Assembly: GCA_002788675.1 (NCBI GenBank)
Contig: PFRS01000001.1
Span: 106,204 to 170,203, forward strand
Direction: 5' to 3'
Length of the DNA: 64,000 nucleotides
DNA from: Candidatus Pacebacteria bacterium CG_4_9_14_0_2_um_filter_40_15
GTDB lineage: Bacteria; Patescibacteriota; Microgenomatia; UBA1400; PJMF01
In this document: piece after piece, positions 2,571 to 49,664 of the stretch
Layout of the letters: each line of letters starts with the position of its first letter
Numbering within the stretch: position 1 is the stretch's first letter
The notes under the pieces: model-generated
What the model was told of the DNA's origin: nothing
The model's input: only the letters and a program-made list of their open reading frames with translations
The model's database searches: none
Made by a program: the position numbers and the translations under genes

Positions 2571-3161
2571 TTATGCGGCTGGTTTAACCATTCGCTTCTG
2601 AGTGATGACATACTGTATTGTTTTTAAAATAATAAATGAACCAGTAATCAAAATGAATTTTGCGTACTCGCCTTCTGCTTTTGATGCATGGAAACTTGCA
2701 ATTGGCAAAACTGCATACGCAACCATCTGAACTTTTTTCCAATTTCGCTTTAAAAGTCTTTGTGATAAATTATTTGATGTTAAGCCCAAGATCCACATGC
2801 CCATACTGGCAACCGCTCCCCAAATTATGAAGCCTTGAGGGTTGTAGACCATATCAAGCGACAAACCTCGACCCAAAAACATTCCCATAGCATGAAAAAG
2901 GTACATCCAAAAACTGGCAACTCCCAACTCTCTTCTAAAAGTCAGCGCTAGCGCAAATAATGGATGAGGATAAATAACTGAAACTGGCTTAATAAAGAGA
3001 TTTGCTGTCACAGCTAAAAGTGCTGCTTGCCCCAGAAGAACAAAAACGCTATCTGTTACCCAAGTTACTGCTGAAACAGCCAGTAAGATTGGCAATACAT
3101 AATAACTAAGGATTTGAATTGCTTTGCGTTGGGTTGGTGAAATCGTAAACATATACGACAT
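2571..3161 (-). CDS. Polytopic membrane protein, possibly a ferric-reductase/MsrQ-like haem-binding domain
   Basis: About six hydrophobic helices with conserved His residues in the transmembrane segments (YLFHAMG, ASFHAS). Confidence 0.35.
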   Translation of the reverse strand: MSYMFTISPTQRKAIQILSYYVLPILLAVSAVTWVTDSVFVLLGQAALLAVTANLFIKPVSVIYPHPLFALALTFRRELGVASFWMYLFHAMGMFLGRGLSLDMVYNPQGFIIWGAVASMGMWILGLTSNNLSQRLLKRNWKKVQMVAYAVLPIASFHASKAEGEYAKFILITGSFIILKTIQYVITQKRMVKPAA

Positions 3162-3769
3162 AGTTTACCACCTCCTTCACTCAAGAAAAAGCCAAAAAAA
3201 ATGGGCCCCGTAGGGCCCAGTTGTGCGCATTGTTTAGCCCCGTGTCACCTAGGTGACATCTGATCGGGCTTGTTTTTTCGCGCAAAGAAAATATTTAGTT
3301 TGTTTTTATAAACATAAGCGGGTGTTATTTCCACCCAATAGTGGTGTTTTTAATGAAAAATCCACCAGTCTGTTTCTTAAACAAACGTTTTCCTCCTTTG
3401 GTACTCATTTCGGCCATTCAGTATTGCTGCAGTGTACCTGCTGCTCTTTCAGCTTGAAAGAAGAATACTGAATTCTAGTCACTGCCCTCTTCACTTTTTC
3501 CATCCACTCTAGATTCGGGATGGTGTTGCTTGCGGGCTCTACCAATTCTGGGTTGTAAATCCAGAATACGATAGCAAGCAGCCAATTCGGACCACATACT
3601 TAGAGTTGTACATGATCCGAATTGGCCACTCACTCACGTGACTGACCAAAAGTAGTAAATGTGCAATTGGAATTACTTCCAATAAGACAGATAGTATAAC
3701 ATATATTATGGGATTAGTCAAGTTAAGTATAAAATGACATAAAAAAATCTCCAAAATGGAGATTAAAAG

Positions 3770-3817
3770 AGAAAGAGGGGGCCAAGGATTGAACCTTGGA
3801 CCCCCTCATTGGGTGTT
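3770..3817 (-). terminator. Intrinsic terminator of the ncRNA locus
   Basis: A 13 bp stem, gagggggtccaagg/ccttggccccctc, is followed on the minus strand by tttctctttt. Confidence 0.6.
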
Positions 3818-4254
3818 ATGGAGTTTTAGATGTTGGGTGCTCGCGTAGCACTCCACAACATCCAAAACTCCTCTGTCTCGCTCCGCGATGCGAGACCAGT
3901 GGGCCGCTCTCATGCGTGCCCATGTGTGTGCCGGTTTGCGCAAACCGGCTCAAAGAAGTTAGACTCACGACCATCTTTGGGCCTTTATTGTCTAACTTGG
4001 TTAGGGAGTTTGACTCAAGCTGGCTAATCTCCCAAGTAGAGCCACAAAGGCGCTTGCAGGGCGCCTGGCATGCCCCTCAACGGGGCGACAAGGCGAAAGC
4101 CACACTTATGGTGACTATCGCTCCGAATAGACATTCAGTATCTACTCAGAGCGACAGTCACACTTCCTAACTTTGGATGTGTGTTGTATCTAAAACTTTT
4201 AACGATCGTGTTTAGTGCAGTTGCGACTTAAAAGCCACGCTGAACTGAACAACT
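3781..4254 (-). ncRNA. Candidate structured non-coding RNA of about 470 nt, identity unresolved
   Basis: This is a GC-rich island inside an AT-rich genome and has no ORF of 60 aa or more on the minus strand. It sits between a perfect sigma70 consensus promoter (4257-4290) and a strong hairpin with a T-run (3785-3817). It contains internal hairpins such as ccggtttgcgcaaaccgg. Confidence 0.5.
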
Positions 4255-4256
4255 AA

Positions 4257-4292
4257 TAGCTATTATAACCTATTATTATAAGCTTGTCAACA
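4257..4292 (-). promoter_or_regulatory. Sigma70 consensus promoter, TTGACA-17 nt-TATAAT
   Basis: The minus strand reads TTGACAagcttataataataggtTATAAT, with an exact -35, an exact -10 and a 17 nt spacer. Confidence 0.65.
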
Positions 4293-4356
4293 CTTATTGG
4301 CCCCTAAAATAGCATCTCTCGAGGAAATTGGTCCTAAATTGCTCCGTAAAAAAGCG

Positions 4357-5433
4357 TTATTTGGGTGAAATTAGAACGGTTTTACCCGTTCCTTCAAGGT
4401 ATATGGGCTGCTCTTCAATTGTAATCGGACTGCCCTTTTTAAAGGTAACCTTCAGTAATAAACCGCGTCTCACGTTCTCTTCAAAGTACTGATCAAACAC
4501 AAAATTTCCTAAAGAATAGTACACAGGTACCCCATTAATACTCTCATGCTGTTGCACTACATGTGGGTGCGAACCAATGATAATATCTGCCCCAGCTGCA
4601 ACAAACTGACCAGCTAATGCCCTGTAGTACTCGCTGGCAATGGGTTGGTACTCAGTACCCCAATGGGTATAGACCACAACAAAATCTGGCTGCAAAGCAG
4701 CTTTTCTTCGAGTAAGTTCAGCAAGTAACTCATCAACGTCACCCCATAGAAACTGATTGTAGTTTACAAACAAGAACTTCATACCATTCTTTTCATATTC
4801 AACAAATGAATCATCCAGCCAAGAATCGCCACCCACACTTCCCCAGTGAGCCAGACCAGCTTGATTAAGTGTAGCTCGCGTCTGAGCCAAACCTTCTGCT
4901 CCAAAATTAAGAATGTGGTTATTTCCAAGATTGAGTAACACAAACCCTAAATCTTTAAGTACAGGTACAACTTCGGGACTAAAGGTAAAAATATAGTTAT
5001 TACTACTACCAACTGCAGAGCCAGAACTGATTGAGTCAAAATCGGTAATGGGACCTTCTAGGTTTGCAACAAAGCCATCAGCTGACTGTGAAAGCGTCTC
5101 AAAGCCCTCAAAAAGTTTGTCATACCCACCCATCACCGCTGCGCGCTGACGAATAAACCTATCAAACTGCAAATCACCACCAAAAACGAGCGTAACTTCT
5201 TGAGACTTAGGAACTTCTTGGGGGGGTACTGCTACAGCAGGTTCAACTTCCTGAAAAATTTCTTCTGGATCAGGTGTGACCAGTTCTTGATTACTTGTGT
5301 ATGCGGAATTAATTGTGAGCGCAATAGCGGTAATGATGACTGCTAGGAGTAGCCATTTTTTAGGTTCGCTAGAAGCTAATTTAGTGTGTAGCATTTCGTG
5401 AACAAGCATCACATATACCAAAAAGAGTGACAT
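4357..5433 (-). CDS. capA: CapA/PGA_cap family metallophosphatase (poly-gamma-glutamate capsule synthesis-like), N-terminally membrane anchored
   Basis: Motifs GGDLQFDR, LGNNH, THWGTEY and GSHPHVVQ are typical of the calcineurin-like CapA family. An alternative start near 5409 would reduce the overlap with zur. Confidence 0.7.
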   Translation of the reverse strand: MSLFLVYVMLVHEMLHTKLASSEPKKWLLLAVIITAIALTINSAYTSNQELVTPDPEEIFQEVEPAVAVPPQEVPKSQEVTLVFGGDLQFDRFIRQRAAVMGGYDKLFEGFETLSQSADGFVANLEGPITDFDSISSGSAVGSSNNYIFTFSPEVVPVLKDLGFVLLNLGNNHILNFGAEGLAQTRATLNQAGLAHWGSVGGDSWLDDSFVEYEKNGMKFLFVNYNQFLWGDVDELLAELTRRKAALQPDFVVVYTHWGTEYQPIASEYYRALAGQFVAAGADIIIGSHPHVVQQHESINGVPVYYSLGNFVFDQYFEENVRRGLLLKVTFKKGSPITIEEQPIYLEGTGKTVLISPK

Positions 5434-5758
5434 GGTGATGCTTAAGTGTATACCCTTCTGGCAGCTTACTTCTGTCTATCATACACTCAAGGTGGTCAAT
5501 TTTTTTACAAGACTCGCAGACAAAATGGTCATGATGTTCATTTTCCAAGCTGCGCAGTTCATAATATACTTTATCGCTACCAAAAGAATGACGGCACACT
5601 TGGTTTTCTGTCAGCATCTTTTCAAGATTTCGATACACGCTGGTTTTATTTACCATTGTACCTTTTTTTGCAAGGAATTCGAGAATTTCTGGAGCAGTAA
5701 GAAAATGTTTCTTCTCTAATAGTTGAATCAATATTTCTCGAAGATTTCTTTTTTTCAT
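5381..5758 (-). CDS. zur: Fur-family metalloregulator, probably Zur
   Basis: A winged-helix N-terminus is followed by HHDHFVCESCKK and CDAC metal-binding motifs. The gene lies directly downstream of znuACB. Confidence 0.75.
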   Translation of the reverse strand: MKKRNLREILIQLLEKKHFLTAPEILEFLAKKGTMVNKTSVYRNLEKMLTENQVCRHSFGSDKVYYELRSLENEHHDHFVCESCKKIDHLECMIDRSKLPEGYTLKHHHVTLFGICDACSRNATH

Positions 5759-8287: not shown

Positions 8288-8340
8288 ATCGGTACTATAT
8301 CACGAGTAAATAAATAATGCAACAATGTTGCATTAATGGG

Positions 8341-38209: not shown

Positions 38210-38281
38210 AGGGCCGTAGTTCAGCGGTAGAATAGAGGTCTCCAAAACCTTTGACGGGGGTTCGATTCCCTTCGGCCCTGC
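38210..38281 (+). tRNA. trnW: tRNA-Trp (anticodon CCA)
   Basis: A cloverleaf with a perfect 7 bp acceptor stem, agggccg/cggccct, an anticodon loop ctCCAaa and a T-loop ttcgatt. Confidence 0.85.
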
Positions 38282-49111: not shown

Positions 49112-49185
49112 ACTTACTTTCTTATCTTTTTCCAAGATGCGTATTATATCAAAATTTATAGAGGACGTAAATACGCCCATTCTTG

Positions 49186-49258
49186 AGCCACCTCGGGGAT
49201 TCGAACCCCGGACCTACGGTTTACAAAACCGTCGCTCTAACCAGCTGAGCTAAGGTGG
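49186..49258 (-). tRNA. trnT: tRNA-Thr (anticodon TGT)
   Basis: The minus strand reads GCCACCTTAGCTCAGCTGGTTAGAGCGACGGTTTTGTAAACCGTAGGTCCGGGGTTCGAATCCCCGAGGTGGCT, with an anticodon loop ttTGTaa. Confidence 0.85.
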
Positions 49259-49426
49259 CATTAGACTTCTTGCGAAATAAGCTTTGTAGCAATTTTGACA
49301 TATATTTGAGTACTTTTGAAGGCACTTACATGCGATAGTAGCCTGTGCTACTTGAGTATGTAAGTAACGCTCAAAAGTGCCAAATAGATGTCAAAGTACT
49401 GCGAATGTTATTTCGCAAAAAGTCTA

Positions 49427-49511
49427 TGGTGCCAGGTGTAGGATTCGAACCTACGAAGGCGAAGCCAGCAGATTTACAGTCTGCCCTCGTTGACCACTTG
49501 AGTAACCTGAC
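49427..49511 (-). tRNA. trnY: tRNA-Tyr (anticodon GTA) with a long variable arm and an encoded CCA
   Basis: The minus strand reads GTCAGGTTACTCAAGTGGTCAACGAGGGCAGACTGTAAATCTGCTGGCTTCGCCTTCGTAGGTTCGAATCCTACACCTGGCACCA. Confidence 0.8.
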
Positions 49512-49592
49512 AGTATCCTGTTTCAGATGAAACAGTGTCGTTTGAATTATATCATCTCCTCTGCAGGAGCCTAAATGCAATTTCAAACACTG

Positions 49593-49664
49593 AGCCGAAG
49601 ACGGGAATCGAACCCGTGACCCCCATCTTACCAAGATGGTGCTCTACCACTGAGCCACTTCGGC
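49593..49664 (-). tRNA. trnT: tRNA-Thr (anticodon GGT)
   Basis: The minus strand reads GCCGAAGTGGCTCAGTGGTAGAGCACCATCTTGGTAAGATGGGGGTCACGGGTTCGATTCCCGTCTTCGGCT. Confidence 0.85.

Follow-up and report, generated by a model that had tools for sequence, protein, structure and literature searches.

A stand-alone multi-hairpin RNA gene downstream of capA in a Pacebacteria genome, very probably of an undescribed non-coding RNA family

The stretch of DNA analysed here (hereafter the window) comprises 64 kb of a genome assembled for Candidatus Pacebacteria bacterium CG_4_9_14_0_2_um_filter_40_15 (contig PFRS01000001.1, positions 106,204 to 170,203). Its minus strand carries, downstream of capA, the gene under study, referred to as RNA1, followed by a second RNA gene, RNA2. 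RNA1 is a stand-alone minus-strand gene with its own sigma-70 promoter, two tandem intrinsic terminators and a conserved 5′ domain, and its 3′ domain is a fast-evolving series of 8–10 GC-rich hairpins. It is very probably a genuine non-coding RNA (ncRNA) gene of an undescribed family, and this family is restricted to a small clade of Pacebacteria-like bacteria of the Candidate Phyla Radiation (CPR). The features of the locus are listed in Table 1.

Table 1. Features of the RNA1 and RNA2 genes in window coordinates, in order of transcription (MFE, minimum free energy; ORF, open reading frame).
Feature	Position	Strand	Description
Upstream direct repeat	4315..4344	−	GAGCAATTT / GACCAATTT, 11-nt spacing, then CCTCGAGA
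Promoter P1 (sigma-70)	4290..4262	−	TTGACA, 17 nt, TATAAT; 12/12 consensus matches
Hairpin P1	4209..4251	−	17 bp in three stacked segments; conserved internal loops; U-rich apical loop
Single-stranded linker	4163..4208	−	Conserved (C)NUUAAMAG at ~4196..4204; invariant columns in alignments A1 and A3
Hairpin P2	4110..4162	−	Near-perfect; 23 bp in window MFE fold, 25 bp in consensus
Central variable region	3997..4109	−	Four or five short GC-rich hairpins (MFE folds per orthologue)
Hairpin Ha	3958..3996	−	7-bp outer stem, conserved internal loop AAUAA / UGA, 4-bp inner stem
Hairpin Hb	3930..3949	−	Perfect 20-nt palindrome GCCGGUUUGCGCAAACCGGC; GCGC apex
Hairpin Hc	3901..3921	−	6–7 bp stem; UGA in loop
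Hairpin Hd	3875..3896	−	7 bp; loop AUCGCGGA with CGCG core
Hairpin He	3818..3873	−	22 bp in two parts (14 outer + 8 apical pairs, window MFE fold); loop UACGCGAG with CGCG core
Terminator T1	3765..3807 (hairpin 3807..3775)	−	13-bp GC hairpin (7+6 bp); interrupted U-tract
Terminator T2	3739..3764	−	Short hairpin and U7 run; CCUCC/GGAGG in most orthologues
Promoter P2	3721..3693	−	TTGACT-17-(TG)TATACT
RNA2	3195..3686 (3195..3721 with promoter)	−	Structured RNA of ~490 nt; 570 nt without credible ORF
RNA2 terminator	3219..3202	−	

A scan of the window with the pattern TTGAC[AT]-N16-18-TA[TC]A[AC]T returned two near-consensus promoters, namely promoter P1 of RNA1 and, 570 nt downstream, promoter P2 of RNA2. 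An earlier note on this DNA had reported an exact TTGACA-17-TATAAT promoter and a 13-bp GC hairpin with a T-run; both were borne out, the promoter without a mismatch and the T1 hairpin being followed by UUUCUCUUUU. Transcription of RNA1 is expected to start near 4254–4257, and the predicted transcript measures ~485–487 nt to terminator T1 and ~515 nt to T2. The GC content was 0.54–0.565 across 3801–4100 vs. ~0.40 in the flanks, and 51% over the GC-rich stretch as a whole. The description of the locus in the earlier note as about 400 nt of GC-rich sequence without a credible ORF was right in composition and in the lack of an ORF, but the length was nearer 490–515 nt. Besides this size of ~500 nt, the note had missed the T2 hairpin with its U7 run, RNA2, and the lineage-restricted distribution of a dispensable gene.

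Homologous loci were collected from GTDB genomes and an assembly collection, with CapA as the anchor. RNA1 was present in four lineages, in the same position after the capA orthologue and with the same promoter: the window, L030 (CapA 66% identical to that of the window), L032/L033 (61–62%), and L001 (56%), which equals L029 and L042–L044. The RNA1 sequences had diverged across these lineages, and plain BLAST did not find RNA1 in L001; the hairpins were retained. Promoter P1 was kept in L001, L030, L032, and L033, including its spacer motif (C/T)ATAA(T/C), with a TG-extended −10 element in three of these four orthologous promoters. Terminator T2 was present in every orthologue and forms a tandem terminator with T1. 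In the non-coding DNA after the capA stop codon, ~25–55 nt 5′ of the −35 hexamer, a direct repeat with the consensus GAGCAAWWT-N2-GASCAATTTCC was kept at all five RNA1 loci. This repeat may be the predicted site of a regulator (transcription factor) or an UP-like element, and its conservation upstream of the promoter suggests that RNA1 transcription is regulated. Because the promoter, the terminators and the fold were all conserved in the orthologous loci, the locus lies far beyond what chance would produce.

The RNA1 transcript of ~487 nt folded with an MFE of −211.9 kcal/mol (z = −10.35), and none of 100 dinucleotide shuffles folded as well. The MFE fold was a string of 12–13 local hairpins, two of them near-perfect with 22–23 bp, and the 5′ and 3′ ends did not pair. 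All orthologues folded with z values of −7.5 to −11.2 despite their sequence divergence, and among them the sense fold was usually more stable than the antisense fold.

Covariation across homologous loci, proposed as a check in the earlier note, was found in both domains. Alignment A3 comprised the 5′ domain of five sequences, with hairpin P1 (17 bp) and hairpin P2 (25 bp); 91.3% of its cells were paired vs. 32–49% when partners were slid by 1–3 columns, 19 of its 42 pairs had changed on both sides, and none of 500 shuffles reached the observed values. Because MAFFT shifted the stems by 1–2 nt and hid the covariation, the 3′ domain was aligned by hand over hairpins Ha–He of the window, L030, and L037 (alignment A5); the rows were verified as true substrings of the loci, and the alignment was kept unchanged through the aligner by N padding. 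Over its 54 pairs, 98.1% of cells were paired vs. 30–40% when slid, and 18 pairs had changed on both sides vs. 0–1 when slid, values again reached by none of 500 shuffles. The 3′ domain contained nine G·U cells and no A·C cells; since G·U was present and A·C absent, the minus strand is the RNA strand, as the promoter predicts.

Within the 5′ domain, hairpin P1 was the part of RNA1 with the highest sequence conservation, and according to RNAalifold and pair counts on A3, 95% of its cells were paired and 6 of its 17 pairs had changed on both sides. The linker that follows was unpaired in both the MFE and the consensus folds. Hairpin P2 has a conserved core GUCGCU...AGCGAC plus conserved G·U pairs, with 89% of cells paired and changes on both sides in 13 of 25 pairs. 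The central region could be aligned among the closest relatives only, and alignment A1 was poor there. In the 3′ domain (A5), all cells were paired in hairpins Ha and Hd (helix 5) and 95% in Hc (helix 4), with two pairs changed on both sides in each; the loop of Hd was conserved as UCGCGRA. In hairpin He (helices 6 and 7), 11 of 23 pairs had changed on both sides. The GCGC(A) loop of hairpin Hb was retained in L030 and L037, where its stem shows a single compensatory change and a single G·U change. At the DNA level, this hairpin is a perfect 20-nt palindrome, GCCGGTTTGCGCAAACCGGC, centred on GCGC, which could be a putative protein-binding site on DNA; a role at the RNA level is favoured because the stem of the relatives has a G·U pair. 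Two further structural candidates were rejected. A K-turn in hairpin Ha, judged by eye, fits on the 3′ strand, where GA adjoins the stem, but AA replaces GA on the 5′ strand, so that the motif is not canonical. A closing helix for the 3′ domain, formed by the linker with the region preceding T1, was plausible by eye in the window and L030, but the predicted duplexes were weak (−4 to −6 kcal/mol) and fell at non-homologous positions.

Self-complementary GCGC or CGCG cores recurred in the apical loops: GCGC, AUCGCGGA, and UACGCGAG in the window; AAAGCGCAC, AAUCGCGAA, and AUGCGCA in L030; CCUCGCGAA and CUCGCGCA in L037; AAGCGCA and AUCGCGCUG in L001; and UAGCGCUG in L032 and L033. Such cores occupied 3 of 13 loops in the window, which none of 60 shuffles reached, and 2 of 13 loops in L001 (p ~0.02). 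Together with the size of ~500 nt, the strong promoter and the high stability, this enrichment would fit an RNA that self-assembles, or scaffolds a ribonucleoprotein (RNP), into a structural particle and not a regulator, through kissing of its palindromic loops within one copy or between copies, like OLE, ROOL, and GOLLD, large orphan RNAs that are likewise lineage-restricted. We regard this explanation as doubtful: RNA1 did not match the OLE, ROOL, or GOLLD families, its sequence conservation outside the 5′ domain is low with no conserved junctions or tertiary motifs detected, the loops bearing GCGC vs. CGCG differ between close relatives, and the gene was lost in relatives.

RNA1 was compared with the 4227 families of Rfam 15, at the gathering threshold and then with permissive filters and E ≤ 10. 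The sole Rfam matches at the gathering threshold, or ARAGORN matches, in the window were four tRNA genes, and ARAGORN called no tmRNA. Over RNA1 in the window, the permissive search returned only sub-threshold chance matches far below gathering scores, mostly to microRNA-precursor models; a spurious match to mir-3047 was due to hairpin He. No family was matched in six orthologous loci at E ≤ 10, and RNA2 had no Rfam match. The earlier note had left the choice between an unknown RNA and a divergent relative within a known family, and had named RF00010, RF00011, RF00023, RF00013, and RF00169 for scanning. None of these families matched; the reading as an RNA gene and an unknown RNA stood, and the branch comprising RNase P RNA, tmRNA, 6S RNA, and the RNA of the signal recognition particle (SRP) found no support in Rfam or ARAGORN.

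The universal and other large RNAs were also considered individually. RNase P RNA is recognised by its conserved P4 helix together with CR-I and CR-V; neither RF00010 nor RF00011 gave a match in the window or the six loci, whether at the gathering threshold or with E ≤ 10. Transfer-messenger RNA has an end-paired tRNA-like domain with G3·U70 and a 7-nt T-loop, and an internal tag frame with a resume codon that ends in a hydrophobic C-terminal tag; RNA1 gave no Rfam match (RF00023) and no ARAGORN call, and no tag reading frame was conserved among the orthologues. A T-arm look-alike, GGUUCAAUCC, in the loop region of T1 was rejected, as its loop has 6 and not 7 nt and it is absent from the orthologues. 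The accompanying "acceptor" stem GAGGGGG/CCCCCUC closes locally and has no G·U at position 3, and a weak antisense match to HPnc0260 (E = 8.9) did not change this verdict. The T-loop-like resemblance is by chance: the hairpin is only a terminator, and the orthologues have a different GC-rich terminator. The 6S RNA is a rod of ~180–200 nt with a closing stem formed by the paired ends and a large central bubble, whereas RNA1 is a ~490-nt string of local hairpins with unpaired ends and had no Rfam match to RF00013. The hallmarks of SRP RNA are a domain IV hairpin capped by a GNAR tetraloop and conserved loops, both symmetric and asymmetric; neither RF00169 nor the large bacterial SRP model matched at E ≤ 10. 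OLE, ROOL, GOLLD, raiA, and HEARO gave no covariance-model match among the Rfam 15 families. To the extent that models of sequence and structure can decide, RNase P RNA, tmRNA, 6S RNA, SRP RNA and the known large orphan RNAs are excluded.

A group I or group II intron, which would sit inside a host tRNA, rRNA or protein gene and have a conserved catalytic core, was rejected, given that RNA1 has its own promoter and terminators, lacks flanking exon halves and gave no Rfam intron match at E ≤ 10; the absence of exon halves and the presence of its own promoter and terminators likewise spoke against an intron-interrupted tRNA or tmRNA. Since two terminators and an independent ncRNA promoter follow RNA1, and no ORF for ~600 nt, RNA1 is not a riboswitch or 5′ leader, whose expression platform would immediately precede the regulated ORF. 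That RNA1 is a very divergent or interrupted RNase P RNA, tmRNA, 6S RNA, or SRP RNA, or an intron-containing tRNA or tmRNA, is very improbable. Both RF00028 and ARAGORN can miss group I introns in Patescibacteria (PMC13011429), a caveat that applies to the intron search above as well, and GGUUCAAUCC in the 3′ hairpin resembles a T-arm, but the Rfam and ARAGORN searches were negative, the T-like loop and local "acceptor" stem are unconserved, and the 5′ and 3′ ends are unpaired. Moreover, RNA1 is missing or truncated in close relatives, which makes it incompatible with an essential RNA such as RNase P RNA. RNA1 is a new family among the stand-alone, large, structured bacterial ncRNAs and is not in Rfam 15. 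Literature searches on large or structured ncRNAs in CPR/Patescibacteria returned no report of an ncRNA of this kind and no description of RNA1, and the surveys of GC-rich intergenic regions that were checked omit CPR genomes.

With respect to coding potential, the longest ORFs on the transcribed strand had 52 and 45 aa, and an antisense ORF of 124 aa was present at 3796..4170 (+). Gene callers had called ORFs at the RNA1 locus in several assemblies, and these calls would be explained if the region encoded the 124-aa antisense protein or a small sense-strand protein. The probability of this is practically negligible. Among 5.8 billion proteins, the 124-aa ORF had only a 99% self-match, and it had no Pfam match; no reading frame was conserved, as stop-free segments shifted in frame, strand and position among the orthologues; and the substitutions were compensatory in RNA helices. 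Cross-species peptide similarity was limited to stretches of 14–35 aa mirroring the nucleotide conservation of the promoter and the 5′ domain, and a homologue search via the spuriously called ORFs overlapping the RNAs returned self-matches only. As far as sequence can show, the absence of a credible coding gene was upheld for both strands, neither of which yields a homology-backed protein or a conserved frame.

The distribution of RNA1 was patchy among close relatives. In L037–L039 (CapA 65% identical), only the 3′ two-thirds of RNA1 were found, the promoter and hairpins P1 and P2 being deleted; the deletion was identical in three independent assemblies, and the intact 3′ hairpins stood directly after the capA stop codon (L037:1897..2250, and also L038 and L039). 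At the capA locus, RNA1 was absent in L034, where only a degenerate, partly duplicated RNA2 was found; in L040 and L041, where RNA2 came directly after capA, with mgtE next on the opposite strand; in L035 and L036, where a 36-nt gap separated capA from the ferric-reductase gene; and in L046, where capA was followed directly by ychF. The more distant Patescibacteria loci L002–L028 contained neither RNA1 nor RNA2. Because close relatives lack RNA1 or have a 5′-truncated copy, RNA1 is an accessory, dispensable, lineage-restricted gene, and its role would be lineage-specific rather than housekeeping. No second copy of any RNA1 or RNA2 segment was found in the 64-kb window, and a covariance model of the RNA1 5′ domain gave no further matches in 491 kb of related loci; a dispersed palindrome of the repetitive extragenic (REP) or miniature inverted-repeat (MITE) type was rejected on these grounds. 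A scan of metagenome contigs with a conserved RNA2 20-mer returned one contig, identical to L001. In viral contigs, the RNA1 pattern gave four chance matches that lacked covariance-model support, and the RNA2 pattern gave none.

The position of RNA1 raises the alternative that it acts in cis, either as a structured 3′ untranslated region or stabiliser of the znuABC-zur-capA transcript or as an insulator or roadblock before the downstream genes. Its place downstream of capA is fixed, no obvious terminator lies between capA and RNA1, and the promoter-less 3′ domain of L037–L039, directly after capA, would be co-transcribed. A cis role is nevertheless improbable, given that RNA1 has its own conserved consensus promoter and upstream element, that in relatives 36 nt suffice between capA and the gene that follows, and that ~500 nt of covarying hairpins far exceed what a terminator or stabiliser needs.

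RNA2 was better conserved than RNA1 and occurred in more lineages (L034, L037, L040). Over 230 nt, it reached 77% identity with L001, for which CapA identity is 56%. Of its 53 predicted pairs, 17 had changed on both sides. RNA2 is an independent gene and not a leader of the ferric-reductase gene. Promoters P1 and P2 share near-identical hexamers and the spacer motif (C/T)ATAA(T/C), P2 having a TG-extended −10 element; the similarity extends in L001 to the first transcribed bases (...UUGUUG...). Both RNAs begin with a hairpin and (A)ACUGCAC, followed ~60–90 nt on by a hairpin of 25–27 bp. RNA1 and RNA2 are probably tandem duplicates, which the resemblance of the two loci makes likely but does not prove: because the covariance model of the RNA1 5′ domain misses RNA2, the paralogy rests mainly on promoter similarity. 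A search for RNA1–RNA2 intermolecular pairing by duplexfold returned global duplexes only.

Within RNA2, a conserved Shine-Dalgarno-like AAGGAGG was observed at 3392..3398 (−), which extends to AAGGAGGUGAU in L030; the latter would be complementary to the conserved 3′ end of bacterial 16S rRNA. The short ORFs downstream of it are different in each orthologue or have no start codon; AAGGAGG is therefore an RNA-level motif, and it could be an anti-Shine-Dalgarno mimic or an internal pairing partner. In L034 (L034:5045..6230), RNA2 lacks its promoter and 5′ end, and its 3′ half has been tandemly duplicated along with the initial ~75 nt of the ferric-reductase-like ORF, as if the RNA locus were decaying or had been rearranged locally.

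The relation between the two genes bears on a further explanation, according to which RNA1 would be a duplicate of RNA2 that is decaying or neutral, or what is left of an inserted element, still transcribed from a strong promoter but with no function of its own. The nearly identical promoters, the fast-evolving 3′ domain, the narrow clade of carriers, the deletion or truncation of RNA1 in several close relatives and the degenerate, partly duplicated RNA2 of L034 are in agreement with such an origin. We consider it unlikely, however, as compensatory changes keep 91–98% of the pairs across lineages with 56–66% identical capA products, the promoter, upstream element and both terminators are conserved, and the lack of extra copies in the window or in the 491 kb of related loci indicates that RNA1 does not belong to a repeat family.

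For RNA1 as an undescribed ncRNA, the following mode of action is proposed. RNA1 would have arisen with RNA2 by tandem duplication and would accumulate as an abundant, stable, nuclease-resistant RNA. It would act in trans as a multi-hairpin regulatory or scaffold platform, comparable to Staphylococcus RNAIII or RNAs of the CsrB type, with the 5′ domain and the GCGC/CGCG apical loops as putative contact sites for protein, other RNAs or other copies of RNA1. Such regulators and sponges come closest to RNA1 in architecture: they have in common with it the size of ~500 nt, numerous hairpins, stems that turn over quickly while loop motifs stay, a conserved 5′ domain, an upstream repeat that hints at a dedicated regulator, and dispensability. 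Processing by RNase III is likely, because two near-perfect helices of 22–25 bp are long enough for it. We rate the combination of an undescribed ncRNA gene with such a trans-acting platform at slightly short of an even chance.

Several points weigh against this interpretation. L037–L039 have lost the most conserved part of RNA1 (the promoter and hairpins P1 and P2) and yet keep 3′ hairpins with compensatory changes, a pattern that is hard to reconcile with the 5′ domain as the functional core. The 5′-domain covariance model does not match RNA2. The covariation rests on 3–5 related sequences, representing four independent lineages and one truncated copy, and the 3′ alignment was made by hand to follow the structure. 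In L032 and L033, GCGC/CGCG loops were not significantly enriched. RNA1 consists mostly of simple hairpins, a search having found no conserved multi-helix junction, long-range helix or pseudoknot, and is less "ornate" than known large functional RNAs. Finally, no partner protein or target was identified for RNA1.

In architecture, the only respect in which the two were compared, RNA1 resembles RNAIII of the Staphylococcus aureus agr system: ~500 nt with ~13–14 hairpins, an own promoter with upstream direct repeats, a terminator hairpin, and confinement to one lineage in which the sequence diverges fast and the hairpins stay. RNAIII acts through its apical loops, whose motifs pair directly with target mRNAs, and is controlled by a dedicated regulator. 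The two RNAs are not homologous, however; RNA1 has no conserved small hld-type ORF, agr-like genes are absent from its neighbourhood, and its loops have GCGC/CGCG cores in contrast to the C-rich UCCC of RNAIII. With CsrB and RsmZ, RNA1 shares a stand-alone gene with (for RNA1, predicted) strong transcription, non-essentiality, fast-evolving hairpins and a recurring short loop motif. It differs from them in that it lacks their defining GGA loop motif (by eye, its GGA triplets are mostly in stems, and none of the 13 apical loops in the window is of the CsrA type), each RNA1 has 1–3 motif loops compared to 5–20, no CsrA-like partner was identified and no Rfam match was obtained; by analogy, RNA1 may work like a sponge via the GCGC/CGCG motif instead of GGA.

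Like OLE, ROOL, GOLLD, and raiA, RNA1 is large for a bacterial ncRNA, GC-rich relative to its genome, highly structured and confined to few lineages, but its sequence is far less conserved, no complex junctions or pseudoknots were recognised, and its distribution is far narrower, covering a handful of metagenome-assembled genomes (MAGs). The head-to-tail arrangement of RNA1 and RNA2 with near-identical promoters, beside a Fur-family regulator and a metal-uptake operon, recalls PrrF1/PrrF2 and 6S-1/6S-2; in contrast to these pairs, RNA1 and RNA2 are 4–5 times longer, and their similarity is confined to the promoter and the first bases.

A bolder and rather doubtful extension is that a clade of CPR (Patescibacteria) episymbionts has a two-RNA system of its own, made up of RNA1 and RNA2, each an abundant RNA of ~500 nt. 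One possibility would be an RNA-only or RNP particle assembled through the palindromic GCGC/CGCG kissing loops of RNA1 and a conserved, ORF-less Shine-Dalgarno mimic within RNA2; another would be that the two RNAs are master regulators of the symbiont lifestyle. If true, either system would constitute a new functional class of large bacterial ncRNA. The known large RNAs (OLE, ROOL, GOLLD, raiA, and RNAIII) each opened new biology, and bacterial ncRNAs of ~500 nt with clear structural selection are rare. Genomes of CPR/Patescibacteria (~1 Mb) leave little dispensable sequence, and still ~1.2 kb is spent here on two strongly promoted RNA genes. If expressed as predicted, RNA1 and RNA2 would rank with the most abundant transcripts in these uncultured episymbionts and would offer a way into CPR-specific regulation or RNP biology. 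What limits their significance is the very narrow distribution (four MAG lineages), the simple hairpin architecture and the loss in close relatives.

Concerning the genomic setting, the upstream gene capA (4357..5433, −) encodes a CapA/PGA_cap protein that is 100% identical to a Candidatus Pacebacteria MAG protein, and it closes the gene string znuA-znuC-znuB-fur(zur)-capA. On the 3′ side, the two RNA1 terminators are followed by RNA2 with its own promoter, and downstream of RNA2 lies a gene for a ferric-reductase-like membrane protein (2571..3161). Directly upstream of znuA, a perfect 19-nt palindrome, AATGCAACATTGTTGCATT, was observed at 8316..8334; the Fur-family (Zur) regulator, whose gene lies at 5381..5758, probably uses it as its operator. 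A Zur/Fur operator at promoters P1 and P2 was considered and rejected, as the palindrome is present at neither. The four tRNA genes of the window lie elsewhere, tRNA-Trp(CCA) at 38210..38281 (+) and a tRNA-Thr(GGU)-Tyr(GUA)-Thr(UGU) cluster at 49185..49664 (−).

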